This document shows positions 9,260 to 30,375 of a stretch of 64,000 bases of DNA, one piece after another (within the stretch, counting starts at the first letter, position 1; each line of letters starts with the position of its first letter). A program made the position numbers and the translations under genes. Under the pieces are notes generated by a model, which worked only from the letters and a program-made list of their open reading frames with translations, was not told the DNA's origin and did not search any database. This stretch comes from Longimicrobiales bacterium. Lineage in GTDB: Bacteria; Gemmatimonadota; Gemmatimonadetes; Longimicrobiales; Gaopeijiaceae. The stretch covers positions 3,072,001 to 3,136,000 of the forward strand of contig OZ242008.1 in NCBI GenBank assembly GCA_965204735.1. Reading direction: 5' to 3'.

Positions 9260-9288
9260 AAAATAGAGGGTCTGGCGCGATCTGGCGA
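9260..9288 (-). promoter_or_regulatory. Putative sigma70 promoter of the beta-lactamase-like operon
   Basis: Minus strand TCGCCA (9288-9283), 17 nt, TATTTT (9265-9260). Confidence 0.5.
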
Positions 9289-9307
9289 GTCGCAGGCGCG
9301 CGGACAG

Positions 9308-11167
9308 TGTCGTACCAATTTAGAAATGTCCGGTCTTACCAAGATAGAAATGTCCTCTTTCGGGCGATGTTCGGCGGGAGTCGAACTCGTGCCCGGGAGA
9401 GGAGCGAATGGAGTTGAGCTTGAAGGAGCGGGACCGGATCTCGGTGTTGAGGCAGGTGAGCGAAGGCGTGCTGGCGGCGGCCGACGGCGCGGCGCGCTTC
9501 GGGGTGACGGAGCGTCACTTCCGGCGCGTGCGCCGCCGGTTCGAGGCGGCGGGCGACGAGGTGGTCGTGCACGGGCTCCGGGGTCGGAGGTCGAACCGGT
9601 CGCTGCCGTCGGAGACGCGGGAGCAGGTGCTGGTCATGGCCAGGGACCCCGACTACGCCGACTTCGGCGCCACGTTTCTGGCGGAGCACGTCGAGCGGGA
9701 GCTGGGCGTGCGCGTCAGCGCGGAGACGCTGCGGGCATGGCGGAAGGGCGCGGGCTTGTGGCAGCGCAAGCGCAAGCGGGCGAAGCACCGGCGCCGACGG
9801 CCGCGTCGCGCCGCGCGGGGCGAGCTGCTCCAGTGGGACAGCTCGGTTCACGCCTGGCTTGAAGACCGGGGGCCGCCCGACCTCGTGCTGATCGCGCTGC
9901 ACGACGACGCGACGAGCGGGTTCATGCACGGTCGCTTCGTCGAGCGCGACACGGGCGCCGCGAATCGGCGAGCGATCGTCGAGTGCCTCGAACGCCACGG
10001 ACGGCCGAGGGCGGTATACGTGGACCACGCGGGCCACTTCGGGCAGCGCCTCGGCCCGGAGGGCAAGCGGACCCGGACGATCATCGGCACGGCGCTGGAG
10101 AAGCTGGGCGTCGAGGTGATCCTGGCGAACTCGCCGCAGGCGAAGGGCCGGGTCGAGCGGACGTTCGGCACGGCGCAGGACCGGCTGGTCAAAGAGATGC
10201 GCTTGGCGCGAGTCACCACGCTCGATGCGGCGAACCGCTACTTGGAGGAGCGGTGGGTTCCGTTCTGGAACGAACGCTTCACGGTGGCGCCGGCCGATCC
10301 CCTCGACGCCCATCGCCCGCTGCCTCAGGACATCGATCTGGAAGCCCTCTTCGCCGAGACGGACACGCGGGTCGTGGCCCGCGACTTCACCGTGCGCTTC
10401 GAGAACCGCTTCTGGCAGGTCACGGCCCGCGACGCCGAGGCGGCCGGCGTCGCGCCGGGCTCCCCCGTCGTCGTCGAACGGCGCCTCTCGGGCGAGCTGC
10501 GCTTCCGGCATCGCGGCTGCTACCTGACGCCCAAGGCCTTGGGGGCGGTCCGGTCGGCGACGCCCAAGCCGGCGCCCGCGCCCGCGACGGCCAAGCCCAG
10601 GCCCAAGCCGCCGAAGCCGGGAAGGGATCACCCGTGGCGCAAGCACTTCAGCGCCAGCGTGGCCCAGGCCGTGGCCAAGCGGGAACACCGCGCCGCCCAC
10701 TCCAACGGGACCGGTCCCGAGCGGTGCAGGACCTCGTCCTGAGCCCGCAGGCGGGGACGGCGGCTCGCACCCCCCTTCCCGCAAAGGTCGGACGCGACCG
10801 CAGTGTCGGCATCCGTGCCTCCGAGGCTTGCCGGCGCTGCGCAGGTCGCTCGGCGCACCACGACCGTCCGAGCTGGCAGGCTCAGTGCGAACTGCGAGCC
10901 ATCGGGGCAGCAGTGTCCGGACCCGTCCGCGTTGGCGTCCACCCGGCCAGAGCTTGGCCACGGCGACGACCTCGACTCGCCCGGCCGCCACTGGCCTTGA
11001 AGCGCCCGGAACAGGGCGCCCGGCGCCGTCCAGCCCAGGCTTGCTGGATCCGCGTGTCCTGCGCCCGACACCTGGCCCCCGGCCTCAGGAAGAACCCACC
11101 GTCCACACCATCAGGGGGGACATTTCTACTTTGGCCAACTACCGGACATTTCTACTTTGGCTTGACA
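9308..11167 (+). mobile_element. IS1202-family (ISNCY) insertion sequence, copy 1, 1860 bp, 17-bp target duplication
   Basis: TGT...ACA ends; each end carries two TAGAAATGTCC subterminal repeats; direct repeat cgcaggcgcgcggacag at 9291-9307 and 11168-11184. Confidence 0.93.
9408..10742 (+). CDS. IS1202/ISNCY DDE transposase (444 aa)
   Basis: N-terminal HTH; 'LLQWDSS', 'YVDHAG', 'SPQAKGRVER' DDE motifs; Pro-rich linker then 'DHPWR' tail; AGGAG RBS. Confidence 0.95.
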   Translation: MELSLKERDRISVLRQVSEGVLAAADGAARFGVTERHFRRVRRRFEAAGDEVVVHGLRGRRSNRSLPSETREQVLVMARDPDYADFGATFLAEHVERELGVRVSAETLRAWRKGAGLWQRKRKRAKHRRRRPRRAARGELLQWDSSVHAWLEDRGPPDLVLIALHDDATSGFMHGRFVERDTGAANRRAIVECLERHGRPRAVYVDHAGHFGQRLGPEGKRTRTIIGTALEKLGVEVILANSPQAKGRVERTFGTAQDRLVKEMRLARVTTLDAANRYLEERWVPFWNERFTVAPADPLDAHRPLPQDIDLEALFAETDTRVVARDFTVRFENRFWQVTARDAEAAGVAPGSPVVVERRLSGELRFRHRGCYLTPKALGAVRSATPKPAPAPATAKPRPKPPKPGRDHPWRKHFSASVAQAVAKREHRAAHSNGTGPERCRTSS

Positions 11168-11344
11168 CGCAGGCGCGCGGACAGCGAAGAGCCAACCTTG
11201 TGCAACCATGGTGCACGGTCGCCGCACCGCCAGTCAGCCCCCGGAGATTCCACACGTCGCGAGTGCAGTTCACGCCCCACAACAAGGCGTTATTGAAGCC
11301 GGGGGCGCCCAGGTGCTGGATCGACCTCGTTTAGGCCGAGTCAA

Positions 11345-11382
11345 GAAAGGCGGCGCCCCGAGCCGACGGTCGCTCAGGCGCC
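11345..11382 (-). terminator. Possible intrinsic terminator of the small lipoprotein gene
   Basis: GC stem cggcgcc...ggcgccg overlapping the stop codon, followed on the minus strand by cctttctt. Confidence 0.4.
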
Positions 11383-11742
11383 GACAAGACCCCAACCCCG
11401 TCCGGAGACTCCAGAGCCTTCTTGATCGCCCCGGAAGAACAGGTCGATGTCTTCCGTTGTCATCTCTGGAAGGCGACCTTCGACATCCCACCCTTCCTGC
11501 TTCCACAGCTTCCGCTCCCGCTCCTGTATGTGCGGCGGCAGCACCTCGATCGCTCCCTCGAAGAAGCGACCCTCCTTCAGCGCCCGCTCCCACCGCTCCT
11601 GTATGTGCGGCAGCGCCTTGATCGCCGCCTTGGCCACCCCAGGCGGCAACGGCTGCATGCCGCTGGGCTCCACTTCCGGCGTGGTCGAGTCGCACGCCGA
11701 CAAGGCGGCGACGATCCCGAAGAGCTTCCACTGCTTGGACAT
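11374..11742 (-). CDS. Small hypothetical lipoprotein (122 aa)
   Basis: Strong GAGGAGG RBS; lipobox LSAC; internal repeat PHIQER twice. Confidence 0.7.
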   Translation of the reverse strand: MSKQWKLFGIVAALSACDSTTPEVEPSGMQPLPPGVAKAAIKALPHIQERWERALKEGRFFEGAIEVLPPHIQERERKLWKQEGWDVEGRLPEMTTEDIDLFFRGDQEGSGVSGRGWGLVGA

Positions 11743-11842
11743 GCGACACCTCCTCATGGAGAGAACCTGCAGCACGGGTGATTCCTCCCCGGCTTGGCGA
11801 GCCGCTCGCCCGGCCCGTCAGGCTGGTTAGATTAACCTCGCA

Positions 11843-12904
11843 ATGAACCACGTACAGACTCGCGCTCCGACGGCCCTCGCCGTGCTGGCCGTCGCGACCC
11901 TTTTCTCGGCTTGCGGAGGCGGTTCCGGCGACCCTGCGCTCCCCGTTCCCGATCCCCCGCCCGACCCTCCCGGCCCGTGCACCATCGCCGCCCGCTGCGG
12001 GGCGCGCATCGCACTGGCCTCCGGCGCCTTCCTCCCCCACTACGCCACGTACCCGCTCGACCGGGGCGCCGCCGGCAGCCCGACCCCCGTCGTCCGCGCC
12101 GTCGTGGTCGTGCACGGGAACCTCCGCAACGCCCACGCCTACTTCGAGCGGGTGGTGACGGCCGCCGAGCAGGCAGGCCGCCTCGCCGAGACGTTGATCG
12201 TCGCCCCCCGCTTCCAGACCAGCGACGACGCCCCCCGGCCCGACGAGCCGTACTGGACCAGCCCCGGCTGGAAGCGCGGTCACCCATCCGCCGGCGGCGC
12301 TGCCCCGCCGATCAGCTCGTACCAAGCTCTCGACACCCTCGTCGCTCGGCTCGCCAACCGCACCCTCTTCCCCGACTTGGCCAAGGTCGTGGTCACGGGC
12401 CACTCGGCAGGCGGCCAAGTCGCCCACCGCTACGCCGCCGGCAGCCCGGCAGAGGACCGGCACGACCGCCTCGCCTTCCGACACGTGGTCGCCAACCCCT
12501 CGACCTACCTGTACCCGACGCCCGTCCGGGAGTGGGCGGGGGAGCACGTCGTGCCCGACGCCCTCGCTTGCCCGGAGTACGACGAATGGCACTACGGCCT
12601 CCAGGCCCTGAACCCGTACATGACCCTCCAGACCGCCGACAGCGCCCTCGCCCGACTGCTGCGCCGCGACGCCGTCGTCCTCGTCGGCGACCAGGACACG
12701 GGCTCCGCGTCCCTCGACCAGTCGTGCGGCGCCAACTACCAAGGGCCGAACCGCTACCAGCGAGGGCTGGCTCTGGTCCGCACCCTCGCCCATGTCTTCC
12801 CGGGGAGTCACCGCCACCGCGCCGTCGTCGTGCCCGGCGTGGGCCATTCGAGCACTGGGATGTACCAGTCGTCGCAGGGCCGGGACGCGCTCTTCGGGTG
12901 GTGA
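11843..12904 (+). CDS. Alpha/beta-hydrolase lipoprotein
   Basis: Lipobox FSAC; 'VVVHG', nucleophile GHSAGG, 'ANPSTY', 'GVGHS'. Confidence 0.85.
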   Translation: MNHVQTRAPTALAVLAVATLFSACGGGSGDPALPVPDPPPDPPGPCTIAARCGARIALASGAFLPHYATYPLDRGAAGSPTPVVRAVVVVHGNLRNAHAYFERVVTAAEQAGRLAETLIVAPRFQTSDDAPRPDEPYWTSPGWKRGHPSAGGAAPPISSYQALDTLVARLANRTLFPDLAKVVVTGHSAGGQVAHRYAAGSPAEDRHDRLAFRHVVANPSTYLYPTPVREWAGEHVVPDALACPEYDEWHYGLQALNPYMTLQTADSALARLLRRDAVVLVGDQDTGSASLDQSCGANYQGPNRYQRGLALVRTLAHVFPGSHRHRAVVVPGVGHSSTGMYQSSQGRDALFGW

Positions 12905-12919
12905 CGGCGCCGGCGAGAG

Positions 12920-12992
<73 letters not shown>

Positions 12993-13187
12993 GCCCAAAG
13001 CTAACCGAACGGAGGGCCGTGTCCACGGCGCTCTGGCCCGTCGTCGCCGCCCCCGCCGGCCCGCTGGATCGGGAACTCGCAGCAGAGGCCGGTGGCAAGC
13101 TGTTGCGGCTCGTCCCGACCGCTTACGTTCTCTCGGTTGACGACGCGCCCGGCGGAGACGGCCCCAACAAGGCAGCGCTGCGACCCC

Positions 13188-14681
13188 ATGACGGAGACGA
13201 AGCGGCGGCTCGACGCGACGGCCCCCGAGGCCCGTTCCGGGCTGCCCCCGTTCGAGAAGCGGACGCTCCCCGCCCCACCCAGGCCCAAGGGGCTGGCCTG
13301 GATCGGAGTGGTAGGACCGGGCGTCATCGTCCTGGGCGCCTCGGTGGGGAGCGGCGAGTACCTCCTGGGACCCGCCGCCTTCGTGCAGTACGGGCTCGTG
13401 CTGCTTTGGGTGACCCTGGCGGCCGCCTTCCTCCAGACGGTCTTCAACACCGAGCTGATGCGGTGGACGATCGCCACGGGCGAACCGGCCATCACGGGCT
13501 TCATGCGCACTCGGCCCTGGTCTTCTCTTTGGGCGATCTTCTACGCGTTGCTGTACTTCCTGCAGGTGGGCTGGCCGGGATGGGCCGGCACGGCGGCGGG
13601 CGCGCTCTTCTTTCTGGTCTTCCGCGACTTGGCCGGCCCGGAGCATGCGGACCTGGTCTACTTGTTCGGCGTGGGCACGTTCGCCTTGTGCGTCGCAATC
13701 CTGTTGTTCGGCAAGCGCATCGAGCGCACGCTGGAGCTCCTCAACTGGGTGCTCGTCTCGGTCGTCATCGCCGGGTTCTTGATCCTCGGGCTGATCTTCG
13801 TCCCGCTGGGCACCTGGGCCGACGCCGCCGCCGGCCTTGCTGGCTTCGACCGCAGGATCAGCGCCTTCCGCTTCTTGCCCGAGGGCGCGGACTACTTCCT
13901 GCTGGGCGCCTTCGCGGCCTACTCGGGCGCTGGCGGGGTGATCAACCTGACTCTCTCCAACTGGGCCAGGGACAAGGGCTACGGAATGGCCAAGGCGGCC
14001 GGCTACATCCCGTCGGCCCTGAGCGGGAAGAAGGTGACGCTGGCGTCGTCCGGCTACACCTTCGACGCAGGCACGCCCCAGGCCCAGGAGCGATGGCGCG
14101 GCTGGTGGCGGATCGTCCGCGCCGACCAGTGGGGCGTCTACTTCGTGGGCGCCGTGCTGGGAATGGTGCTCCCCGCCGTTCTCTACGTGACTTACCTCGA
14201 GAGCGGAGCCGACATCCGCGACCTGTCGATCGCCGCCGCCCTGGCCAACGCGATGGCCACTCGAGAAGGGGCGATCTTCGGAGGCGCGATCGCCCTGATG
14301 GGCGTATGGGTGCTCTTCAAGACCCAGCTGGACATCGTGGAGGGGATGACCAGGGCCGTCACCGACATCCTCTGGACCGGCTCGCGTCGCGTTCGCCGGG
14401 TCCGAGGCGGCGACGCTCGACGCGTCTACTACGCCGTCCTGATCGGGCTCGCCCTGTGGGGCGTGGTCGCGATGAAGATCGCCCAGCCCATCTTCTTGCT
14501 CCAATTGGGCGCGAACATGGCTGGAATCGTGTTCGTGGTCGCGTCGCTCCACTTGCTGTACATCAACACGCGCTTCCTGCCCAAGGAAGTGCGTCCGCCG
14601 CTTTGGCGTCGCGTGGCGCTCGTGGCCATGGCCGTGTTCTACGGCGCCTTTGTTGCGATGTGGCTTGGCAGCATGTTGTGA
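13188..14681 (+). CDS. Nramp-like (APC superfamily) secondary transporter
   Basis: 'GPGVIVLGASVGSGEYL', 'RWTIATGE', many TM segments. Confidence 0.8.
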   Translation: MTETKRRLDATAPEARSGLPPFEKRTLPAPPRPKGLAWIGVVGPGVIVLGASVGSGEYLLGPAAFVQYGLVLLWVTLAAAFLQTVFNTELMRWTIATGEPAITGFMRTRPWSSLWAIFYALLYFLQVGWPGWAGTAAGALFFLVFRDLAGPEHADLVYLFGVGTFALCVAILLFGKRIERTLELLNWVLVSVVIAGFLILGLIFVPLGTWADAAAGLAGFDRRISAFRFLPEGADYFLLGAFAAYSGAGGVINLTLSNWARDKGYGMAKAAGYIPSALSGKKVTLASSGYTFDAGTPQAQERWRGWWRIVRADQWGVYFVGAVLGMVLPAVLYVTYLESGADIRDLSIAAALANAMATREGAIFGGAIALMGVWVLFKTQLDIVEGMTRAVTDILWTGSRRVRRVRGGDARRVYYAVLIGLALWGVVAMKIAQPIFLLQLGANMAGIVFVVASLHLLYINTRFLPKEVRPPLWRRVALVAMAVFYGAFVAMWLGSML

Positions 14682-14731
14682 TCCGCCCAACGAAGCACCG
14701 ACTCGTTCCCCCAAACCTGCAAGGAGGCGCC

Positions 14732-15817
14732 GTGAGCTCCGACTTCCCGAAGCGCCCAGGGCCCTCGACGAGCCCTGCGCGCCCCATCAGCAAGCGCGAC
14801 TTTCTCAAGACCGCCGGAGCGGGCGCGGCGGCCGCCGCCCTCGGAGCCTGCGGGAACGGCAACCCCATCCGCTGGAAGCTCCAGACCTACGCCGGCGCGC
14901 CGCTGGCCGAGCACGTCGTCAGGCCGATGATCGAGTCGTTCAACGCCGTCGCCAACGGCGAGATGGTGATCGAGCTGTACACGGCCGACGAGCTCGTGCC
15001 CACCGCCGAGCTGCTCCCTGCGATGCAGGAGGGCGTGCTGGACGCCGTGCAGAGCGACGACGACTCCATGCAGTCGCCTGCCGACGTGTCGATCTTCGGC
15101 GGCTACTTCCCCTTCGCGACCCGGTACAGCCTCGACGTGCCCGTGCTCTTCAACCAGTACGGGCTGCGGCGAATCTGGGAGGAATCGTACAGCTTGGTCG
15201 AGAACGTGACGTGGCTGAGCGCCGGCGCCTGGGACCCGTGCCACTTCAACACCGTCGAGCCGATCCGACGGTTGGCGGACCTGGACGGACTGCGGGTCTT
15301 CACCACGCCTACGGCGGGCGAGTTCCTGACGCGCTTCGGCGTCGTGCCAGTCACTCTCCCGTGGGACGACGTGGCGGAGGCGGTGAGCAGGGGCGACCTG
15401 GATGGCATCGCGTGGTCCGGGATCACGGAGGACTACTCGGTCGGCTGGGCGGACGTGACCAACTACTTCCTCACCAACAGCCTGTCGGGCGCGTGGTGCG
15501 GATCGTTCTTTGCCAACACCCAGTCGTGGGAGGCCGTTCCCAGCCACTTGCAGGAGCTGTTCCGCGTGTGCATGGACAGCTCGCACTACTACCGGCTCCA
15601 CTGGTACTGGGGCGGCGAGGCGCGTCTTCGCACGCAGGGCGAGAAGCTGGAGCTGACGTCGATCCCCGACGACGAGTGGCGGCGGGTGGAGGAAGAGGCG
15701 GTCAAGTTTTGGGACGAAGTCGCCGCGACCAGCCTCCGCGCCGCTCGAATCGTCGCCGTGCTCAAGGAGTACAACGAGACGATGGAGAAGGCCGGCCGTC
15801 CCTACCGCTGCTCGTGA
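14732..15817 (+). CDS. TRAP transporter solute-binding protein (DctP/TakP-like), Tat lipoprotein
   Basis: AAGGAGG RBS with GTG start; 'SKRDFLK...LGAC'; 'WKLQT', 'LADLDGLRV', 'GDLDG'. Confidence 0.88.
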   Translation: MSSDFPKRPGPSTSPARPISKRDFLKTAGAGAAAAALGACGNGNPIRWKLQTYAGAPLAEHVVRPMIESFNAVANGEMVIELYTADELVPTAELLPAMQEGVLDAVQSDDDSMQSPADVSIFGGYFPFATRYSLDVPVLFNQYGLRRIWEESYSLVENVTWLSAGAWDPCHFNTVEPIRRLADLDGLRVFTTPTAGEFLTRFGVVPVTLPWDDVAEAVSRGDLDGIAWSGITEDYSVGWADVTNYFLTNSLSGAWCGSFFANTQSWEAVPSHLQELFRVCMDSSHYYRLHWYWGGEARLRTQGEKLELTSIPDDEWRRVEEEAVKFWDEVAATSLRAARIVAVLKEYNETMEKAGRPYRCS

Positions 15818-15832
15818 CGCGGTCGGCTCCGG

Positions 15833-16816: not shown

Positions 16817-17259
16817 CAGGTCCCGCAGCTCGCAGCCAGCCGTTCCAAGGACAGTTTCCACCCCACCTCGTGGCCCTTTGCGGCCTCGTCCGACGGAAAC
16901 CCGCAATGGCTCAGCAGAACCTTCGTCCCGCCCTCCACCGCCCCGAACTCCACCGTGACGGTGGTGTCGACGCCCATCGCCTGGGGAGGCTCTCGCCAGT
17001 CCCACGTAAAGGCCAGCCGCAGGGGGCGAGCGATCTCCCGGTAGGCGCCGAACGCCGTGAACGCGCCGGCGCTGGTCTCCATGCGCACCGACCAGCTTCC
17101 TCCGGGCCGCAGGTCGTTGTCGGCAACGACGCGGGCCGTGGGATCGGGGCAGATCCAGCGGGCCACCTGCTCGGCGCTGCTCCAGGCGTCAAAGACGGCC
17201 TCCGGCGAAGCCGCGACGACCTGCGCCAGCTCGATCCGACGCGTCGGCTCGCCGTTCAT
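16813..17259 (-). CDS. SRPBCC/AHSA1 domain protein
   Basis: 'PEAVFDAWS', 'DLRPGG', 'RLAFTW', 'GTKVLLSH', 'GW..SLERL'. Confidence 0.88.
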   Translation of the reverse strand: MNGEPTRRIELAQVVAASPEAVFDAWSSAEQVARWICPDPTARVVADNDLRPGGSWSVRMETSAGAFTAFGAYREIARPLRLAFTWDWREPPQAMGVDTTVTVEFGAVEGGTKVLLSHCGFPSDEAAKGHEVGWKLSLERLAASCGTW

Positions 17260-21105: not shown

Positions 21106-21263
21106 GCTCCACCCTCCTTGGTCGGGCAACGCCCTTCGCCGCCGAGCCTCCGTGCAGGTTCTCTTCCTTGCCCCGCCCCGTCATCTTGACACGCGTTCTT
21201 CTAGAAAGCGACACTCTACCGAACGCATCTCGCTTTCGCACTCGACCCGCAGAGGGCCCGCCC

Positions 21264-22477: not shown

Positions 22478-24255
22478 CGATTACTACGGCGTCCCTCGCC
22501 CTTGCCCTTCTGCAAGTTCCCCAGCTGCCGCCCGCCGTCCACTACGGGGAGTACGCCGTGGGCACGACGACCGGCGTCGCAGTGGACGCTCGCCAGCGCT
22601 TCGACCCATGGGGCGCCGCTTACGGCCGACCCCAGTACCGCGCCATGGTGCGGCGCGTCGAGGCCAGCGGCCAAAGACGCGCGGTGGTCTTCCAGCTGTG
22701 GTATCCGGCAACGCCCGCGAGCGGCGCGATGCGGCTGGACGGTCCGCGGTCGCCCTTCCCGGCGGCCAGCGGGCGACGCGCCAACTACTACGACCTCTTC
22801 TTTCAGGAAGCGGGGATGGCGCACGAGACCCTCGTCCAGCTCGCCCCCGAGCTCGTGCACGTTCGGGGCGGAGGCACGCTGGCGGACGCCGCGACCGAGG
22901 AACGGCGGGCCGCCATGGACGAGCTGTCCGAACTCGTCGCCGGCAAGCTCCTCGGAGGGTGGCAGGACGCGCGGCCGGCGGACGGCGCGTTTCCGGTGAT
23001 CGTGCTCGCTCACGGGTTGAGCGGCCACCACGCCCTGTGGGTCTCGCTGGCCGAGTTCCTGGCGTCGCGCGGCTACGTGGTGGCGGCGCCCACGTTCGTT
23101 TCCGACGGAACCGCGGCCATGGTCTTCCACGACGAGGACTCGCCGTACGCCAGACAGGCGTCGCCCGAGGAGTTGCGACGCACCTACCGGCTCCTGGCCT
23201 TCGAGCCCAAGGTCGTTCCCTACTTCTTCCGCCTGCTCTTCGACTACGAAGGCGACGAGGTGTTTCCGTCCCCGGAGGCATACGGACCGGACGGGGAGAA
23301 GATCGCCCCCGGCGGCGTCGAGCGCGCCACCACCATGATGCGCAACCTCTTCCGCCAGCGCGTTTCCGACATGGGGCTCGTGCTCCACACGACGCGCCTG
23401 CTGGGCGCGGACCGGGAGAGTTGCGCAACGGCCCTGGCGGCGATGGGCGCCACCAGCGCCGCGCGGAACTTGTGCGGTCTTCTGACGGGGCGCATCGCCG
23501 ACGGCCCGGCCGGAGTCGGCGGGCACTCCCTGGGATCGATGACCGCCCACTTCGCCGCCGACGCCTTGCCCGACGTGGCCGCCTCCCTGGGCTTCAACAA
23601 CGGCCCGCCGTTCAAGTGGACGCCCGAAGAGATGCTGGCCGGCGAGGCCACGGAGGAAGGGCTGCCGGGGGGCGCCCGCAAGCCCCTGCTGCTGATGATC
23701 GGCGACGAGGACGCCTTCGTGCAGTCGGTGTTCATGGGCCTCTTCCAGTCCAGGGTGAGACGAGCCGGCGGAGACCCTGCGGAGGCGTTCCCCTTGGAGC
23801 CCGAGCGCGCGCTCCCCGACCGCGACAACCCGCAGCCCGTGGCCCTGAGCACGTGGCGACGCGCGCTGTCGGACCGGGTGCTGGTCACCGTCGGCGACGT
23901 GGACCACAGCGTCTTGGTGGAGGACTTGATGCGGGACGTGCCGTGGCCCGCCTTCGAACGAGGCGAACTCCCGTTCGGAATCGGTGCGGAGCGGCGGCGG
24001 AAGCCGACCGGGGGCGCGGCCATGGACGCCGACCCCGAGCCCGGCGAACGCTACGACCTGCTGGGATGGGCCTCCGTCGAGGGCCCGGGCGACGCCGGCG
24101 GCGACGGCGAAGCGTACCTTCCCCATGTGGTGCGGGACTGGTACGCCCTGACGTGGTTCGACTGGCACCTCAAGGGCGACCAGGAGGCGCGGCGCAGGCT
24201 GGCCGGCGAAGACCCCTTCGGCGCGCTGACCTCGGTTCGCCGGGAGTTTCGGTAG
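22474..24255 (+). CDS. Alpha/beta-hydrolase (PAF-acetylhydrolase/dienelactone-hydrolase-like)
   Basis: 'QLWYPA', 'FPVIVLAHG', 'LASRGYVV', GHSLG nucleophile; ATGA overlap. Confidence 0.82.
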   Translation: MTITTASLALALLQVPQLPPAVHYGEYAVGTTTGVAVDARQRFDPWGAAYGRPQYRAMVRRVEASGQRRAVVFQLWYPATPASGAMRLDGPRSPFPAASGRRANYYDLFFQEAGMAHETLVQLAPELVHVRGGGTLADAATEERRAAMDELSELVAGKLLGGWQDARPADGAFPVIVLAHGLSGHHALWVSLAEFLASRGYVVAAPTFVSDGTAAMVFHDEDSPYARQASPEELRRTYRLLAFEPKVVPYFFRLLFDYEGDEVFPSPEAYGPDGEKIAPGGVERATTMMRNLFRQRVSDMGLVLHTTRLLGADRESCATALAAMGATSAARNLCGLLTGRIADGPAGVGGHSLGSMTAHFAADALPDVAASLGFNNGPPFKWTPEEMLAGEATEEGLPGGARKPLLLMIGDEDAFVQSVFMGLFQSRVRRAGGDPAEAFPLEPERALPDRDNPQPVALSTWRRALSDRVLVTVGDVDHSVLVEDLMRDVPWPAFERGELPFGIGAERRRKPTGGAAMDADPEPGERYDLLGWASVEGPGDAGGDGEAYLPHVVRDWYALTWFDWHLKGDQEARRRLAGEDPFGALTSVRREFR

Positions 24256-24292
24256 GGGGCAAGCCGGCGCCCCCGGCGAGGGCGGCTTCTCC

Positions 24293-24637
24293 CTACTGCT
24301 CGGGTTCTCCTGCTGCTCCTTGGGCGTCGCCCAACCCGTCCCCGTCCCCTCGCTTCTGCTGCCGCCCGGCCCGCTTCCGCAGCCACGCCCCCACCCCCGC
24401 CACCAGCCCCAGCGGCAGCAGCGTCAGCAGGCCCGTCGTGGCCAGGAAGGCGATCCGCGCCTCGTCGTCCCGGTCGAAGCACACCGGACAGGCATGAAGC
24501 GCCTCCGGCCAGAGGGCGACCATCAGTCCCGCCGAGCCGCAGCAAGCCGCAAGCGCGCCGAGGGCCGCGCGCCGACTCGAACCGCTTGGCGCCGCACTGC
24601 CCGCGCCGCCGTCCCCGAACTCCCGTCCGCCGGTCAC
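24293..24637 (-). CDS. Small oxidase-operon-associated membrane protein with CxxC
   Basis: 'ALHACPVCF' followed by one TM helix; GTGA overlap with the subunit III gene. Confidence 0.6.
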   Translation of the reverse strand: MTGGREFGDGGAGSAAPSGSSRRAALGALAACCGSAGLMVALWPEALHACPVCFDRDDEARIAFLATTGLLTLLPLGLVAGVGAWLRKRAGRQQKRGDGDGLGDAQGAAGEPEQ

Positions 24638-25230
24638 AGGTACACCTGGACGTAGAGGACCGGCCACACTGCCACCACGAAGTACCAGAAGAGCGCCACG
24701 GTGGAGAGCGTTTCCTTGGCGAGCCGCCCGGCGCGGAGCCTTGCCGTCGCCCAGCCCAGCGCGCAGAGCGCAACCACGGCGTGGACGGCGTGGGCGCCGA
24801 TGATCGTGTAGAAGAGGCTCCCGTAGGTGGACGACGTGAGGGTGAGGCCTTCCGCCAGCAGGGCGACCCACTCGACGCCCTGAAGCGCCACGAAGGCGGC
24901 CCCCAGAAGCGTCGCGGCCAGAAGGAGTCCGCCGACTCGAGGCTTGCCCTTCTCGTGCAGTCGGTGCGCGACCAGGAGGAGGAGCCCGCTCAAGACGAGG
25001 GCGCTGGTGTTGACCGCGGTCCGCTCGAAGGGAAGGCGGGGCTGGTTCGGCGGGGGCCAGACCGAGCCCGGGGCGCGGGACTTCACGATCACGTACGCCG
25101 AGACGAACCCGGCGAAGAGCATGACCTCCACGAAGACGACGAGGATCATTCCCAGCACGCCGTTCGACACCAGCTTCTCCGGCTTGCTCGGCCGGGGCCG
25201 GAAGCGGAGGACGGTGGCGTCGGCGACCAT
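24634..25230 (-). CDS. Cytochrome c oxidase subunit III-like protein
   Basis: 'EVMLFAGFVSAY', 'NTSALVLSG', 'FYTIIGAHAVH', 'FWYFV'. Confidence 0.88.
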   Translation of the reverse strand: MVADATVLRFRPRPSKPEKLVSNGVLGMILVVFVEVMLFAGFVSAYVIVKSRAPGSVWPPPNQPRLPFERTAVNTSALVLSGLLLLVAHRLHEKGKPRVGGLLLAATLLGAAFVALQGVEWVALLAEGLTLTSSTYGSLFYTIIGAHAVHAVVALCALGWATARLRAGRLAKETLSTVALFWYFVVAVWPVLYVQVYL

Positions 25231-25250
25231 TCGGCTTCCGGCGCGCGCGA

Positions 25251-25928
25251 CTAGGCGCGTCGCCGCTCCCGCAGTCCCTTCAGCGTCTCCAGCGCCAGCA
25301 GTCCGGCGCCGACCGACAGCATGATCGCCACGGCGTTGGTCCCGACCGCCACCAAGCCCACCACCGACCAGAACGCCACGTGGGTGAAGTTGTACCCGCC
25401 CGGCAACAGGTTGTCGTTGGACTTGGCGTCGGGCACCAGACCCGCCTCGGACGGCCGTGGGGAAGGGGCGCCGTGGCCTGCTTCCTCGGCGTGGTCTGCT
25501 TCCTCCCCGTGGCCGGCCTCTTCGACGTGGGCGACTTCCGGGATTCCCCGCTCCACGGCGGCCTGGGCCGCCACGTTCTCCCAGTTGGCGCCGGCGTGGT
25601 TCTGCACGTCGGGCGCGATCCCTCCCCAAAAGAGCGCCAAGAGGAGCACCGACGCCGCCAGGAACCACTTGGCGATCGGCCGCTCGATCGTGAGGTGCAT
25701 GAAGTGCTTGATCACCAGCCACGCCTTCACCACGGCGATGCCGAAGGCCGTGAGCAGCATGAAGAAGGTGGAGACGCGCAGGCCCAGCACGGGGACCTCG
25801 GCCTCGCCCAGCCGGGGCGCCAGGACGGGTCCCATGATGCTGACCGCCAGGAGCACCAGCAAAGTCAGGTAGACCCTGACGTAGTGGTTCGAGAGCCAGC
25901 CGGCGTTGGGGTCGGAGGGAGCGGCCAT
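25251..25928 (-). CDS. Cytochrome c oxidase subunit IV family protein with C-terminal extension
   Basis: 'YVRVYLTLLVLL', 'AVVKAWLVIKHFMHL'; His/Glu-rich repeat and one extra TM helix. Confidence 0.8.
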   Translation of the reverse strand: MAAPSDPNAGWLSNHYVRVYLTLLVLLAVSIMGPVLAPRLGEAEVPVLGLRVSTFFMLLTAFGIAVVKAWLVIKHFMHLTIERPIAKWFLAASVLLLALFWGGIAPDVQNHAGANWENVAAQAAVERGIPEVAHVEEAGHGEEADHAEEAGHGAPSPRPSEAGLVPDAKSNDNLLPGGYNFTHVAFWSVVGLVAVGTNAVAIMLSVGAGLLALETLKGLRERRRA

Positions 25929-25935
25929 GGTCCGC

Positions 25936-26505
25936 CTATTTCGCGATGTAGAGCAGTGGGAAGAGGAAGATCCAGACGATGTCGACAAAGTGCCAGTAGA
26001 TGCCGATCAGCTCCACCCGGTGGAGTTCGACGTTGCGCTTCGCGTCTCGGGCGACGAAGGCCATGATCACCGCGCCGGCGATCACGTGGAAGGCGTGGAG
26101 TCCGGCTGCGGAGTAGTAGAAAGCCCAGAAGGTGTTCGACGTGATCGTGTAGCCGTGGCTGATCTCGTACCACCACTCGTAGGACTTCACGCCGATGAAG
26201 ATGGCGGCGCCGGCGATCGTGAAGTAGAGGAACTTGGCCGCCGTCCTGCCGTCGCCCCTCTCCGCCGCCTGGTGCGCCAGCACTGCCGTGAGGCTCGACG
26301 AGAGCAGCACGAAGGTGTTGAAGGCCCCGATCGTCGGGTTCGTGTGGACGGCGGCGTCGGCCCACTCCGGGTGCCCCAGCCGGTGCATGACGTACGAAGC
26401 CAGCAGCCCGCCGAAGATCACCACCTCCGACGCCAGCACCCACCAGACGGCCAGCTTGCCCGTGGCGATTCCGGTGGCGGCTCGGGTCGTTGCGATCGGT
26501 CTCAT
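25936..26505 (-). CDS. ctaE: Cytochrome c oxidase subunit III
   Basis: 'LASEVVIFGGL', 'NTFVLLSSS', 'GLHAFHV', 'YWHFVDIVW'. Confidence 0.92.
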   Translation of the reverse strand: MRPIATTRAATGIATGKLAVWWVLASEVVIFGGLLASYVMHRLGHPEWADAAVHTNPTIGAFNTFVLLSSSLTAVLAHQAAERGDGRTAAKFLYFTIAGAAIFIGVKSYEWWYEISHGYTITSNTFWAFYYSAAGLHAFHVIAGAVIMAFVARDAKRNVELHRVELIGIYWHFVDIVWIFLFPLLYIAK

Positions 26506-26563
26506 CTGAGGTCGGTCTCGAGGCGGTCGGCTTGGGGGCTGTCGAGGCTGGGGGAGGGGCGGG

Positions 26564-28288
26564 TCAGTTGGGAACGTTCTGGGGCCAGTAGTCGTCGTCG
26601 CGGTCCGGCACGCTGTACTCGTACGGCCCCCGGTAGACGACGGGCATCTCGTCGGGGCGCCAGTTGCCGTGGGGCGGGGGCGACTCGGTGGTCCACTCCA
26701 GCGAGTTGGCCTTCCACGGGTTGCGCGACGCCTTCTTCCCGGAGCGCCACGACTTCCAGCAGTTGTAGAAGAAGACGAACTGGAAGGCGAGCATGACCAG
26801 CAACGAGACCGTGGCGATCACGCGCATGTTCTGAAAGCCCGGGCCCGCCAGTTCGGCGAAGTGCTCGTAGTTGTAGATGCGCCGGTGCTGGCCGCCCATC
26901 CCGAGCACGAAGAGGGGGATGAAGATGAAGTTGAAGGGGATGACGGTGCCCCAGAAGTGCACCTTGCCCAAGGTCTCGTTCATCATCTTCCCGAACATCT
27001 TGGGGAACCAGTAGGTGAACGCCGCGAACGTGCCGATGATGGCGATGGGGAAGAAGGTGTAGTGGAAGTGGGCCAGGACGAAGTAGGTGTCGTGGAAGTA
27101 GATGTCCGCGCCCGCCGCGCCCAGGAAGATGCCCGTGACGCCGCCGATCAGGAACTCGGCCACGAACGCCAGCGCCCAGAGCATGGGGGTCGTGAGGGTG
27201 ATCGAGCCCCGCCAGAGGGTGGCGATGTAGATGAAGCAAAGCTCGGCGATGGGCACCGAGATGAGGAGGGTCGTGATCGTGAAGAGGTTCGCCATCCGGG
27301 GATCTATTCCGGCGATGAACTGATGGTGCGCCCACACGAAGAAGCTCAGCACGCCCGTGGCGACGACGGTGAAGATCACCGTGCGGTAGGCGAAGAGCTT
27401 CTTCCTGGCGAAGGTGGTCATGATCTCCGCCACCACTCCCATGGCGGGGAGCAGCACCACGTACACCTCCGGGTGGCCGAAGAACCAGAACAGATGCTGC
27501 CAGAGCACCGGATCGCCCCCCATCCCCGGGTTGAAGAACCCCGTCCCCAGCGTCTGGTCGAAGAGCAGCATGATCGCTCCCGCCAGCAGAGGACCCACCG
27601 AGAGCATGAAGAGGATGCTGGCGATGACGATCATCCACACCACCACCGGCACGTCGAAGGCCCGCATCCCCGGCGCCCGCGAGTTCATGAGGGTGGTGAT
27701 GAAGTTGATGCCGCCCAGCAGGAAGGCGACGAACTCCAGTCCCACGCCCACGAGCCACAACGTGCTGCCCAAGGGGGTGAGGTTGTACGTCCCGTCGGCC
27801 GAGAGGGGCGGATAGGCCGTCCACGCGCCCGCGAACCCGCCTCCCTCCACGACCAGCGACGCCAGGATGACGATCGTGCTCACGAAGAAGACCTGGAACG
27901 ACAGGCGGTTGATCTTGGGGAACACCATGTCGTCCGCGCCCACCATGAGCGGGATCAGGTAGTTCCCGAAGGCGGCCAGGAGGACGGGCATGGCCACCCA
28001 GAAGATCATGATCGTGCCGTGGTTGGTGACCAGCGCGTTGTACTCGCCCGGCGAGACCAGCCCGAAGCCCGGGACCTCGAAGCCGGGGAAGGCGAGCTGC
28101 ATCCGGAAGACGTAGGCCATGAAGCCGCCCACCAGCGCCATGAACATGCCCGTGAACATGTACTGCATGGCGATGACCTTGTGGTCCGTGGACCACACGT
28201 ACTTCAGCCAGCCCTCGGGGCCGTGGTGGGCGTCGTGGGCGTCTTCGGGGGAGTGGTCGCGAACCGGTGCGACGGCGGGCTGCGTCAT
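26564..28288 (-). CDS. ctaD: Cytochrome c oxidase subunit I (A1 type)
   Basis: 'STDHKVI', 'NHGTIM', 'WFFGHPEVY', 'WAHH', 'AHFHY', 'RR'. Confidence 0.97.
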   Translation of the reverse strand: MTQPAVAPVRDHSPEDAHDAHHGPEGWLKYVWSTDHKVIAMQYMFTGMFMALVGGFMAYVFRMQLAFPGFEVPGFGLVSPGEYNALVTNHGTIMIFWVAMPVLLAAFGNYLIPLMVGADDMVFPKINRLSFQVFFVSTIVILASLVVEGGGFAGAWTAYPPLSADGTYNLTPLGSTLWLVGVGLEFVAFLLGGINFITTLMNSRAPGMRAFDVPVVVWMIVIASILFMLSVGPLLAGAIMLLFDQTLGTGFFNPGMGGDPVLWQHLFWFFGHPEVYVVLLPAMGVVAEIMTTFARKKLFAYRTVIFTVVATGVLSFFVWAHHQFIAGIDPRMANLFTITTLLISVPIAELCFIYIATLWRGSITLTTPMLWALAFVAEFLIGGVTGIFLGAAGADIYFHDTYFVLAHFHYTFFPIAIIGTFAAFTYWFPKMFGKMMNETLGKVHFWGTVIPFNFIFIPLFVLGMGGQHRRIYNYEHFAELAGPGFQNMRVIATVSLLVMLAFQFVFFYNCWKSWRSGKKASRNPWKANSLEWTTESPPPHGNWRPDEMPVVYRGPYEYSVPDRDDDYWPQNVPN

Positions 28289-29046
28289 TGCAGGGGCCCT
28301 CCGGGCTGGGCGGGGGCAAGCGTGCCGGCCGACGGCGTCGCGGCGACTTGGGTCGCGCTCGGCGCGCTTGGGGCGTTGGCCGCCACCCAGGCGGCGTGTT
28401 CTTCGGCGGTCTCCACCATCACGTCGGCCGCCATTACGCCGTGACCGAATCCGCAGATCTCGGCGCACTGGACGTCGAAGACGCCAACTTCGGTGGGCTG
28501 GAACCACCCGGTGATGCTCCTTCCGGGGATGGCGTCCTGCTTGATCCGCCACACGGGCACGGAAAAGCTGTGGAGCACGTCGGTGGCTTCGAGCTTGAAG
28601 TGGTAGGTCTTCCCGACCTCCACGTGAAGCTCGTCCACCTTGAAGATGTCGTCGGGGGTGTCCAGCAGGCCGTCGGGGCCGGGGTGCTGAAAGGTCCAGG
28701 CCCACTGCTGGCCGACGATGCGGAGCTCCGCGTCCGGGTTCTCCGGAAGCTCCAGCTTGATGTGGTGCCAGACGCGGAACGAGACCACGATGATCGCCAC
28801 GTCGCACACCAGCACCAGCAGGTGGGGGATGGTGATCCAGCGCTTGTGGACCTTGTTCTTTCCGTCCACGTAGTCGGCCTTGCGTCCCGGCTTGGCCCGG
28901 TACTTCAGGATGAGCCCCAGGAACACGGCCTCTGCGATGACGAACCAGACGCCGACCAGGATCAGCACGAGAAGGATCAGGCCGTCGATCTGGGCCGCGT
29001 AGGAAGACGCGACGGCCAGCAGGTTGTCGAAGAGGGTGGTTTCCAT
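28285..29046 (-). CDS. ctaC: Cytochrome c oxidase subunit II (CuA)
   Basis: 'DVLHSF' and 'CAEICGFGHGVM' CuA ligands; two TM helices. Confidence 0.96.
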   Translation of the reverse strand: METTLFDNLLAVASSYAAQIDGLILLVLILVGVWFVIAEAVFLGLILKYRAKPGRKADYVDGKNKVHKRWITIPHLLVLVCDVAIIVVSFRVWHHIKLELPENPDAELRIVGQQWAWTFQHPGPDGLLDTPDDIFKVDELHVEVGKTYHFKLEATDVLHSFSVPVWRIKQDAIPGRSITGWFQPTEVGVFDVQCAEICGFGHGVMAADVMVETAEEHAAWVAANAPSAPSATQVAATPSAGTLAPAQPGGPLQ

Positions 29047-29228
29047 CAGAGGATCACCGCCACGACGGTGCCGACGAACCCCACCGCCAGGAGCACGGTC
29101 CAGATGAGGGTCTTCTTGGCGAACTGGATCGCCTCGTTCTCGGCGTCCGGGGGCGCCGGCGGCACCTTGGCGGCCAGCTCGGCGTGGGTCGGACGGCCTT
29201 CGGTCGGCTGTAGGTTCTCGTCGGTCAC
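29046..29228 (-). CDS. Small single-TM protein in the oxidase operon (about 60 aa)
   Basis: GTG start; C-terminal hydrophobic helix; stop overlaps the ctaC ATG (TGATG). Confidence 0.6.
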   Translation of the reverse strand: MTDENLQPTEGRPTHAELAAKVPPAPPDAENEAIQFAKKTLIWTVLLAVGFVGTVVAVIL

Positions 29229-29244
29229 GGCGCTCGTGGCGTTC

Positions 29245-30273
29245 TCAGCGGCTGAGGGCGAAGACGTAGGCGGCGACGGCCCGCACCTGGTCGTCGGTGA
29301 GGGGCATGCCCGCGCGCGGCTGCATCTGGCCGGGGTGCTCGACGGGCTGCGGGACCCCGGTGTTGACCAGCTCCACAATCGACTGATACTCGCCGTCGAC
29401 GTTGAGCCACGCGTCGTCGGTGAGGTCCGGGGCCAAGGGTCCGCCCCCTCCGCCCTGGGTGTGGCAGGTGTAGCAGATTCCGGCGCCGTGGAAGATCGAC
29501 TGGCCTTCCTGGACCATCTCCGTGGTGACGCCGGCGGGCAGGACCGCAGGATCGACGGCCACCGGCGGCAGCGCGGCGGGCTCGGCGCCGGCGATCGCGC
29601 GCTTCGGCGGCAGGCGGCGCATCGACACGACGTAGGCGGTGACGTCCTCGACCTGTTCCTCGGTGAAGGCGGCCACGGAGGGAGTCATGAGGGCGCCCCC
29701 CACGTCGCCCGACTCGCCCCCCCGCACGCCGTCCCGGTACTTGCGGATCGACGAGGCGACGTACCAATCGCTCAGGTGCAGCAGCGACGGCGCGAACTGG
29801 GCTTGGTTTCCCCGCCCGTCCAGGCCGTGGCAGGCCGAGCAGAGGGCGGCGTACTCGTCCTCTCCCGCCTCCGCGTCTCCCTGCACCGCGCCGGTGGGCG
29901 GCGGGTCCGCCATGGGAAGGCTGGTCACGTACGCCGTGATGGCTTCGACGTCTCCCCTGGATTCGGAGAGCGAGCGCGACATGGGGCGCATCCGCAACCC
30001 CTCGACGTCCTGGTGGTGGTACCCCCGCCGGCCCTCTCGGAAGGCTGCCAGCTGCGCCTTGAGGTACCACTCGGAGGCGCCGGCAATGGCGGGGGCGCCC
30101 AGCACCTGATTGCCGGCCCCGTCCTCGCCGTGGCAGGGCGAGCAGGTGTCGAAGAGCTTCTCGCCCCGGGCCAGCTGCGGGTCGGCCTCGCCGCACGCGG
30201 CCAAGAAGATCAAGGCGACGGCATGAAGGGTCGGGGCCTGCGTGGATACGGTAGCTCGAGGCAGCCGCGTCAT
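29245..30273 (-). CDS. Trihaem c-type cytochrome lipoprotein (c4-like dihaem plus a third domain)
   Basis: CSPCH, CSACH, CYTCH; lipobox LAAC. Confidence 0.92.
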   Translation of the reverse strand: MTRLPRATVSTQAPTLHAVALIFLAACGEADPQLARGEKLFDTCSPCHGEDGAGNQVLGAPAIAGASEWYLKAQLAAFREGRRGYHHQDVEGLRMRPMSRSLSESRGDVEAITAYVTSLPMADPPPTGAVQGDAEAGEDEYAALCSACHGLDGRGNQAQFAPSLLHLSDWYVASSIRKYRDGVRGGESGDVGGALMTPSVAAFTEEQVEDVTAYVVSMRRLPPKRAIAGAEPAALPPVAVDPAVLPAGVTTEMVQEGQSIFHGAGICYTCHTQGGGGGPLAPDLTDDAWLNVDGEYQSIVELVNTGVPQPVEHPGQMQPRAGMPLTDDQVRAVAAYVFALSR

Positions 30274-30327
30274 TCGGTCGCGAAGTGGCTTCGGTGAAAG
30301 GCGCTCCAACGGTGGAGCGAACAACGA

Positions 30328-30356
30328 ATTCTACTCCAACGGGTGCGCCTGGGCAA
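30328..30356 (-). promoter_or_regulatory. Putative sigma70 promoter of the cytochrome c/oxidase operon
   Basis: Minus strand TTGCCC (30356-30351), 17 nt, TAGAAT (30333-30328). Hairpin cgctcca/tggagcg at 30302-30319 in the leader. Confidence 0.7.
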
Positions 30357-30375
30357 TAGGTCCGGCGGCGCTGGC

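Follow-up and report, generated by a model that had tools for sequence, protein, structure and literature searches.

Landmark-guided insertion in related elements

Within the IS1202 family, which used to be called the ISNCY / IS1202 group, the insertion sequence (IS) described here resembles the ISTde1 subgroup. According to the available text of Siguier et al. (bioRxiv 10.1101/2022.12.17.520857), a glutamine replaces the lysine or arginine downstream of the glutamate of the DDE triad in this family, and the DDE motif of the ISTde1 subgroup is split by a subgroup-specific insertion. The same text and the accessible part of a paper from the Hall laboratory (PMC10132070) give target duplications of 15-17 bp for this subgroup, and what is available of the two family papers states no target preference for it. 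A sister subgroup, ISAba32 / ISAjo2, has dif and pdif sites as its target and is inserted 5 bp away from their XerC arm, and the authors suspect, in the portions available, that bound proteins or the site architecture are recognised (Siguier et al., 10.1101/2022.12.17.520857; PMC10132070).

Insertion beside promoters has been described for Mutator-like elements, namely TnGBS, ISLre2 and the ISKra4 group, whose insertion point lies upstream of sigmaA promoters, 15-17 bp from the -35; the available text also ties free orientation in these elements to near-perfect inverted repeats (Guerillot et al. 2014, PMC3942029). No report of promoter targeting by the IS1202 family was found in the literature searched.

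An IS1202-family element at two predicted promoters

The window analysed is a stretch of 64,000 nucleotides from the genome of a Longimicrobiales bacterium (contig OZ242008.1), and it contains two copies of the IS with the following features:

8071-9141, minus strand: class A beta-lactamase-like gene (PF13354) downstream of promoter 1, with GAGGA 8 nt before the ATG
9260-9265, minus strand: -10 hexamer TATTTT of promoter 1, separated by a 17-nt spacer from the -35-like hexamer
9283-9288, minus strand: weak -35-like hexamer TCGCCA of promoter 1, 2 nt (AC) past the duplication
9291-9307: left 17-bp target duplication of copy 1, exact repeat CGCAGGCGCGCGGACAG
9308-11167, plus strand: IS copy 1, 1860 bp, termini TGT...ACA, two TAGAAATGTCC transposase-site repeats per end
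9408-10742, plus strand: transposase gene of copy 1 (P0001), 444 aa, matching NF033594
11168-11184: right 17-bp target duplication of copy 1, exact repeat CGCAGGCGCGCGGACAG
29245-30273, minus strand: multi-haem cytochrome c gene downstream of promoter 2, with a lipoprotein-like signal peptide
30328-30333, minus strand: -10 hexamer TAGAAT of promoter 2, separated by a 17-nt spacer from the -35
30351-30356, minus strand: -35 hexamer TTGCCC of promoter 2, 2 nt (TA) past the duplication
30359-30375: left 17-bp target duplication of copy 2, GGTCCGGCGGCGCTGGC, single in the empty site of other metagenomes
30376-32235, plus strand: IS copy 2, 1860 bp
30476-31810, plus strand: transposase gene of copy 2, 444 aa
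32236-32252: right 17-bp target duplication of copy 2, GGTCCGGCGGCGCTGGC

The two copies differ by 12 substitutions and no gaps. Over residues 13-368 their transposase matches the profile NF033594 (transpos_ISNCY_2) with an E-value of 6.4e-99 and a score of 331.6 bits, the cut-off being 250, and more than 7000 relatives at E <= 1e-20 were found among 8000 candidates scored. The IS has the Tn7-like 5'-TGT...ACA-3' termini of the family with imperfect inverted repeats; both ends open with TGTC and carry two of the repeats listed above, as they do in 45 related elements. The residues D144, D206, E250 and Q257 do not vary among 19 sequences and lie on the RNase H fold elements of an AlphaFold model; they were assigned to the catalytic triad and the downstream glutamine by position and not by comparison with a reference member. 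All 12 full copies in this genome have duplications of 16 or 17 bp, and those of the 45 related elements measure 15-18 bp. The profile match, the TGT...ACA ends and the duplication length are thus shared with the ISTde1 subgroup, and the difference lies in the target, which here is a promoter. The ISAba32 / ISAjo2 subgroup has the same transposase family and, in the text available, likewise a protein-binding landmark rather than a fixed sequence as its target; it differs, according to the same text, in its 5-6 bp duplications, its constant orientation and the nature of the landmark, whereas the present IS, with duplications of 16-17 bp and promoter-bearing flanks, falls outside that subgroup. 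Plasmid members of the ISAba32 / ISAjo2 subgroup align only to residues 3-338 of the present transposase, and no bounded element was found for ISEsa1, an IS1202-like plasmid element.

In both copies the minus strand, followed outward from the left IS end, reads duplication, 2 nt, -35-like hexamer, 17 nt and TAnnnT, with the first T of the -10 as the 26th base past the duplication, exactly as the first-pass annotation had described. The expected transcription start lies about 110 nt from the start of the beta-lactamase-like gene and about 48 nt from that of the cytochrome c gene. The target site of copy 2 existed empty before the insertion: in contigs of three runs, each belonging to a different study, 30357 is joined directly to 32235, and the 1877 bases of the IS and one duplication are missing. 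Taken alone, the two sites of the window amount to no more than chance could give; the geometry is accepted as real because it recurs in the other 10 full copies of the genome, at 45 sites in relatives and at 96 metagenome ends.

Promoter signals in phase with the insertion point

The 12 full copies in this genome and the 45 elements in relatives make up 57 duplication-bounded sites; 35 of 80 related loci, in which the procedure used gave no such element, are excluded from these counts and enter a one-sided tally wherever an end was found. TTG occurs at offset 0-4 past the duplication in 42 of the 57 sites, against 4-12 in eight shifted frames. When it is combined with nAnnnT after a spacer of 16-18 nt, 36 sites qualify (shifted frames 0-3), and with TAnnnT 18 sites (shifted frames 0-1). 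At least 8 of 12 matches to TTGACA/TATAAT are reached at offsets 0, 2 and 3 in 21 of the 57 sites, with a background of 0.14 per offset; in the one-sided survey this E. coli consensus threshold was replaced by TTG+nAnnnT because it is too strict for GC-rich promoters. By the criteria used here, six of the 57 sites have TTG without a -10 and five have neither. It should be kept in mind that copies in one genome and in related genomes are not fully independent samples.

Among the 12 full copies of the genome itself, 10 have a -35-like and -10-like pair at the fixed place, seven by TTG+nAnnnT and three by TAnnnT alone. The targeted promoters include those of rplM, tRNA-Met, cytochrome c and a TonB receptor, and the 5' end of tRNA-Met lies 5 nt after the -10 of its promoter. 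The copies that fit poorly are copy 816092, whose TTGCCT points towards a convergent gene at its 3' end, copy 3490373, which sits between convergent genes with no motif, and copy 3827119, with TTGCCG on both sides; the motif is also absent from three internally deleted copies, which represent one event. Of the promoter-bearing flanks, 33 face a forward gene and 7 a reverse gene, compared to 39 and 24 for the other flanks, a contrast that is only modest and depends on a crude ORF/GC3 gene caller.

Independent support comes from metagenomes, where TTG+nAnnnT occurs at a distance of 14-18 nt from the edge of the IS in 36 of 96 ends (control 1.8) and where the pattern holds over a flank GC of 24-77%. 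With the -35 and the -10 both enriched in phase with the insertion point in relatives, in the own genome and in metagenomes, the promoter targeting proposed in the first-pass annotation is supported; its prediction of a TTG occupying offsets 3-5 and a TAnnnT that begins at offset 26 was confirmed. These data support the conclusion that an IS1202-type element with long duplications selects sigma70-type promoters, next to which it inserts at a constant distance without disrupting them.

Orientation and comparison with Mutator-like elements

The same annotation had held that both copies share position and orientation relative to the promoter. The position and its geometry recur, whereas the orientation does not: in the own genome the promoter lies to the left of the IS in about 4-5 copies and to the right in about 5-6, so it is by coincidence that the two window copies point the same way. 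Remoter clades, in contrast, are oriented with the left end adjoining the promoter (20 left, 1 right). These counts leave out the metagenome set, in which the N-terminal motif test is unreliable for telling left from right ends. Recognition takes place from one side only, since no motif was found on the opposite flank in 23 one-sided sites; the same flank rules out a symmetric target with the TTG word on both sides, at which the 12 own copies had hinted. Orientation is free in this clade and therefore forms no part of its targeting rule.

The IS shares with TnGBS, ISLre2 and ISKra4, as far as their available description goes, the fixed short distance upstream of the -35, the intact promoter and the occurrence of oriented members beside others that insert both ways. 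In this clade 18-19 bp lie between the -35 and the IS edge upstream of it, and in the remoter clades 15-17 bp. This is a functional likeness and not membership, for the transposase of those elements is Mutator-like (p-MULT) whereas profile and fold are ISNCY / TnsB-IstA-like here, an unrelated superfamily, and the duplication of this IS is much longer than the one given in that description. Free orientation has been tied to symmetric inverted repeats in Mutator-like elements; no such link is evident here, with an end identity by our own count of 79% in the free-orientation IS and 80% in an oriented clade.

As a separate observation, the fourth base of the ends correlates with orientation in a comparison of three clades only: both ends of the free clade start with TGTC, and the left end of the oriented clades starts with TGTA.

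Alternative explanations for the insertion pattern

That the two window flanks match by chance could be argued from there being only two sites and from the weak -35 of copy 1. It can hardly be credited, as the geometry recurs in 10 of 12 full copies and likewise in relatives and metagenomes, in each case measured against shifted or genome-wide controls. Random insertion with survivors only in harmless intergenic places would agree with most insertion sites being intergenic. It is nevertheless very improbable, because selection is unable to set a phase of 1 bp: of 24 own-genome flanks, 9 have a TTG that starts precisely at offset 2 and none has one starting at offsets 3-12, and the metagenome peak over the 96 ends is only 3 nt wide. 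A somewhat less remote but still improbable explanation is that the target resembles the tip of the right IS end (...GGCTTGACA) and that promoters are struck only because their -35 looks like this tip, which does read outward as TTGACA in this IS and in an Acidiferrales IS. The transposase would in that case pick up targets similar to the end to which it is already bound. The left tip, CGACA, lacks the word, however, and a clade with right ends TGTTGG... (tip CCAACA) targets promoters equally well (12 left, 1 right); the enrichment of the -10 would also be left unexplained.

The most serious competitor, though unlikely on balance, is that a DNA-binding domain of the transposase recognises a CTTG(C/A)C-like word by the cut site and that the -10 signal arises since such words in spacers are often real -35 elements. 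The TTG core is near-invariant on the promoter side of the one-sided sites (22, 22 and 21 of 23) and is preceded by C in 15 of 23, and one TTGCCT site of the own genome has a non-promoter context. The insertion offset, moreover, remains 2 whether the spacer measures 16, 17 or 18 nt (10 of 13 strict cases), so the insertion point is anchored on the position of the -35 and not on the -10. The preceding C and the C at hexamer positions 4-5 could reflect some direct reading of the DNA. Against this word as the whole explanation, a -10 accompanies 38 of 45 TTG-bearing flanks (84%), whereas the controls, all three drawn from this genome only, give 7% for genome TTGs, 9% for unmasked DNA and 13% for TTG[AC]C words in short spacers. 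Among sites without TTG (GTGCGC, TAGCGA, TCGCCA and others), 10 of 15 keep TAnnnT at the fixed distance (shifted frames 0.35), from which it follows that the promoter is recognised as a whole. The rule also holds in clades with widely differing IS ends and host GC.

A possible role of promoter-bound RNA polymerase

The best candidate for the mechanism is docking of the transposase on promoter-bound RNA polymerase. We consider it probable overall that this is an active IS1202-family IS with a TnsB/IstA/MuA-like DDE transposase and duplications of 16-17 bp which targets sigma70-type promoters, and that the polymerase holoenzyme guides it there. The staggered cuts lie upstream of the -35 hexamer at distances of 2 bp and 18-19 bp, which places the IS at about -55, at the upstream edge of the polymerase footprint; the 17-bp duplication preserves the native sequence beside the promoter. 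The transposase would not read the DNA alone and may contact the holoenzyme near sigma region 4, much as TnsB, MuA and IstA use a separate target-selecting partner. The likely consequence would be a safe landing site at which neither a gene nor a core promoter is disrupted.

The transposase consists of two HTH domains, an RNase H fold, a beta-barrel, a Pro-rich linker and a C-terminal helix starting at DHPWR. A sequence profile search of solved structures returned no matches at E <= 0.01, so a fold search was needed; the AlphaFold model (mean pLDDT 79.9) has the domain order of the IS1202 family, and its top Foldseek matches are IstA, TnsB and MuA. These enzymes choose their targets via a separate partner. 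Tn7 (TnsB-TnsC), Mu (MuA-MuB) and IS21 (IstA-IstB) share with the present IS the catalytic fold, the domain order and several transposase sites per end, and in all of them a C-terminal tail could engage a target selector. The difference is that this IS encodes no AAA+ partner, a role that promoter RNA polymerase would take in the proposed mechanism. A candidate adaptor is the P-D-H-P-W-R motif behind the flexible linker: residues 380-408 are disordered in the model and followed by a helix at 409-434, and the motif is present in 16 of 17 clade representatives. DHPW(R/K) is absent from the tail of ISKpn21, the one Xer-site-targeting relative compared; the relation between tail conservation and target type is a correlation only. 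When the full transposase was modelled together with sigma region 4 (residues 205-281) from the primary sigma factor of the genome, the predicted complex scored 0.00 (mark 0.32), a result that speaks neither for binding nor against it.

A parallel to this mechanism exists in Ty3 and Ty1, in which an integrase-fold enzyme is tethered to the transcription machine and lands just upstream of genes. These retrotransposons integrate at RNA polymerase III genes, according to the text available (PMC6673722), and they differ in being eukaryotic retroelements that use another polymerase and other adaptor proteins.

A more specific and tentative proposal, which we hold to be possible, is that an ATPase-less transposase of the TnsB/MuA/IstA type selects its targets via the host RNA polymerase holoenzyme by touching it near sigma region 4 with the tethered P-D-H-P-W-R motif, and that sister subgroups have swapped this tail for others suited to different landmarks, for example XerCD at dif.

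Implications

Promoter-guided transposition has so far been described for the Mutator-like TnGBS, ISLre2 and ISKra4, and an unrelated and very widespread family obeys the same rule here; the strategy has therefore evolved at least twice. The sparing of genes and core promoters would explain the tolerance of compact genomes for such IS. For annotators, the insertions are a free marker of real promoters in Gemmatimonadota and Acidobacteriota, in which promoters have hardly been mapped. Together with the Xer-site-targeting sister subgroup, the IS offers a tractable system for how a host protein-DNA complex steers a DDE transposase, a question that bears on the design of targeted insertion tools. 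If the proposal of an exchangeable tail holds true, the IS1202 family would represent a natural set of tether-swappable, landmark-guided integrases.

The insertion sequence and its two sites in the window

The host genome comprises 4.14 Mb at 69% GC in a single contig, and its relatives are Longimicrobiales (Gemmatimonadota) assemblies. Repeat search and BLAST delimited two IS1202-family insertion sequences (IS) in the window:

9308–11167, IS copy 1, 1860 bp
30376–32235, IS copy 2, 1860 bp

The copies are separated by 12 substitutions, without gaps; they start with TGTC and finish with GACA, carry two TAGAAATGTCC repeats per end, and are each enclosed by an exact 17-bp direct repeat, the target duplication. 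Their single ORF encodes a 444-aa protein (P0001 in copy 1) matching NCBIfam NF033594 "ISNCY family transposase" (331.6 bits, cut-off 250). In its AlphaFold model (mean pLDDT 79.9), two HTH domains, an RNase H fold and a beta-barrel (297–379) are followed by a disordered Pro-rich linker (380–408) and a helix (409–434) beginning D-H-P-W-R; the closest structural matches are IstA of IS21, TnsB of CAST and Tn7, and MuA. At the IS ends (window 9308–9331 and 11155–11167; same positions in copy 2), an outward TTGACA finishes the right end and a TAGAAA lies 13 nt inside the left end, a combination that would make a -35/-10 pair if the ends were joined in circular form, about 4 bp apart. Such an end-to-end promoter is discussed for copy-out-paste-in IS in one preprint (Siguier et al., bioRxiv 10.1101/2022.12.17.520857).

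On the minus strand, the left flank of copy 1 reads duplication, AC, TCGCCA, 17 nt, TATTTT, and that of copy 2 reads duplication, TA, TTGCCC, 17 nt, TAGAAT; the shared geometry described in the first-pass annotation is thus exact. Plausible gene starts lie about 110 nt (copy 1) and 48 nt (copy 2) past the transcription starts predicted near window 9253 and 30321, respectively. The gene behind the copy 2 promoter encodes a lipoprotein-type cytochrome c. That behind the copy 1 promoter (8071–9141, minus strand) belongs to the class A beta-lactamase family (PF13354, E 1.4e-52), and the organism carrying it is environmental and sponge-associated. Elsewhere in the window (42470–49847, minus strand), a tandem array of four paralogous genes, each about 1.85 kb long, shows 67–82% DNA identity between units; matches to the PMT_2 glycosyltransferase family were obtained for two of them.

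Insertion sites in the genome and its relatives

Twelve full copies are present in the genome, each with a duplication of 16 or 17 bp, besides three internally deleted copies representing one insertion event, one solo right end and fragments. With the offset counted as the nucleotides between the duplication edge and the -35-like word, a TTG starts at offset 2 in nine of the full copies' 24 flanks, at offset 1 in one and at offsets 3–12 in none, and a -35-like and -10-like pair occupies a fixed place in 10 of the 12 copies.

Examples of these pairs in the same genome
Gene; pair ahead of it (-35-like, spacer, -10-like)
rplM; TTGACA-18-TATTAT
tRNA-Met gene; TTGCCT-17-TAGCCT, tRNA 5' end 5 nt past the -10
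MazE-like gene; TTCGGA-17-TATACT
dicarboxylate symporter gene; TTGCGG-17-CATAAT

The misfits are copy 816092, in which TTGCCT points at a convergent gene's 3' end, copy 3490373, situated between convergent genes and without the motif, copy 3827119, with TTGCCG on either side, and the event behind the deleted copies. The latter (G000:C1:855652-856721, 1795354-1796423 and 3009048-3010090, on the genome's contig; about 1.07 kb each) miss roughly IS positions 397–1139 plus one terminal repeat unit and share an identical context within a larger repeated element, with an imperfect 17-bp flanking repeat and no promoter motif; they are one insertion, later duplicated along with the host repeat. The solo right end (705 bp, G000:C1:511962-512666) has TTGCCG in its outer flank, 18 nt from the IS edge. 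The copy ahead of rplM (G000:C1:1891295-1894613, locus L205) lies between the stop codon of the gene for the primary sigma factor (281 aa, P0122) and the strong rplM promoter, and that stop codon falls within the 16-bp duplication.

A profile built from 19 homologues recovered 80 loci in genome assemblies, of which 45 were kept as bounded elements (TGT/ACA ends and a duplication of 15–18 bp, no more than one mismatch being allowed) and the other 35 were left out of the bounded set. Bounding by the duplication does not bias towards a promoter motif, since the motif lies outside it. Together with the 12 full copies this gives 57 sites, whose flanks are all distinct.

Promoter words at the 57 bounded sites
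Pattern; sites; control
TTG at offset 0–4, at least one flank; 42/57; 4–12 (eight shifted frames)
TTG + nAnnnT at 16–18 nt; 36/57; 0–3
TTG + TAnnnT; 18/57; 0–1
At least 8/12 matches to TTGACA/TATAAT at offsets 0, 2, 3; 21/57; 0.14 per offset

Metagenome ends and an empty site

Scanning metagenome contigs for the family-wide end pattern TGT-N10-TAGAAATGTCC gave at least 124 stretches with at least 126 ends; once duplicates, inner subterminal repeats and ends flanked by less than 130 nt had been discarded, 96 ends remained among the matches listed. Among these, TTG + nAnnnT stood 14–18 nt from the IS edge in 36 (mean of shifted windows, 1.8), which is near the ceiling because a promoter can face just one of an element's two ends. 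By flank GC, again among the matches listed, the counts were 10/25 below 40%, 16/40 at 40–55% and 10/31 above 55%. Set against their controls, the -35/-10 counts at bounded sites and metagenome ends strongly support the promoter targeting proposed from the two window copies.

In three runs, each from a different study, contigs connect window 30357 directly to 32235 with at least 255 bases matched per side, skipping 1877 bases, that is, the IS and one duplication. This empty site indicates that the promoter is older than the insertion and that natural populations are polymorphic for the insertion. In metagenome runs X6 and X10, loose ends at window 30376 place the IS at other sites in other populations; their consensus left flanks, from mixed contigs with an agreement of 0.56–0.70, carry TTGTCG and TTGACT from 19 nt off the IS edge, in conformity with the rule.

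Orientation

The fixed orientation inferred from the window copies does not hold for this IS, as the promoter lies on the left in about 4–5 of the genome's own copies and on the right in about 5–6, so that the two window copies agree in orientation by chance; the rule does hold for remoter relatives, with left-to-right ratios of 12:1 and 8:0.

IS end facing the promoter, scored by TTG + nAnnnT
Group; left; right; both; no call/no data
This genome; 2; 3; 2; 5
Close clade, TGTC at both ends; 15; 8; –; 13
Loci with left end not found; –; 5; –; 9
Clade with left end TGTAG...; 12; 1; –; 6
Acidiferrales element; 8; 0; –; 3

In the Acidiferrales element the 15–16 bp duplication directly adjoins the -35, and TAnnnT follows at 17–18 nt in 6 of 8 bounded sites. 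Four loci of one related genome (L016, L018, L022, L057) share a family-type right end; the left-end pattern was not found where expected, and the left end of the element there is possibly variant or rearranged.

Recognition of the promoter and the transposase tail

Whether the whole promoter or only a TTG word is recognized can be judged from the -10. It accompanies 38 of 45 TTG-bearing flanks (84%), against 7% of all genomic TTG, 9% of those outside long ORFs and 13% of TTG[AC]C in short spacers. At the sites without TTG, window copy 1 among them, where the "-35" hexamer is for example GTGCGC, TAGCGA or TCGCCA, TAnnnT occurs exactly at the 17-nt-spacer position in 10 of 15 (shifted frames, 0.35). 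The offset from duplication to "-35" is 2 in 10 of 13 strict cases, with spacers of 16 (three cases), 17 (five) and 18 (two). Since the offset stays constant across spacer lengths, the position of the -35 determines where the IS inserts, with the -10 also required. No motif was seen on the opposite flank of the IS.

In its accessible part, the preprint of Siguier et al. (bioRxiv 10.1101/2022.12.17.520857) defines three subgroups, ascribes Xer-site targeting only to the 5-bp subgroup and gives no target for the others, and the word "promoter" is absent from the Hall laboratory paper (PMC10132070). Mutator-like TnGBS, ISLre2 and ISKra4 elements behave analogously and some members insert both ways round, according to Guerillot et al. 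(PMC3942029). No report of promoter targeting by the IS1202/ISNCY family was found in the full texts searched, which lie mostly outside the subscription journals. Relative to the literature found, the new elements are a clade that combines free orientation with a 2-bp offset, evidence for a role of the -10 even where a -35 word is missing, and the natural empty site.

Sixteen of 17 transposases, with all sampled clades represented, carry the motif P-[D/N/H]-H-P-W-[R/K] after a Pro/Lys-rich stretch; the sole exception appears frameshifted. In the Xer-site-targeting subgroup, plasmid-borne members align to residues 3–338 only, and one of them, ISKpn21, lacks the motif. TnsB, MuA and IstA contact target-selecting ATPases via their C-terminal parts, and this IS encodes no such partner; by this analogy the tail is a reasonable candidate adaptor. 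The transposase would dock on promoter-bound RNA polymerase holoenzyme, with sigma region 4, alpha-CTD and the beta flap as candidate contacts, a reading favoured because both promoter elements are read at canonical spacing, anchored on the -35 and from one side, as the holoenzyme itself reads them, and docking through the candidate tail adaptor is plausible.
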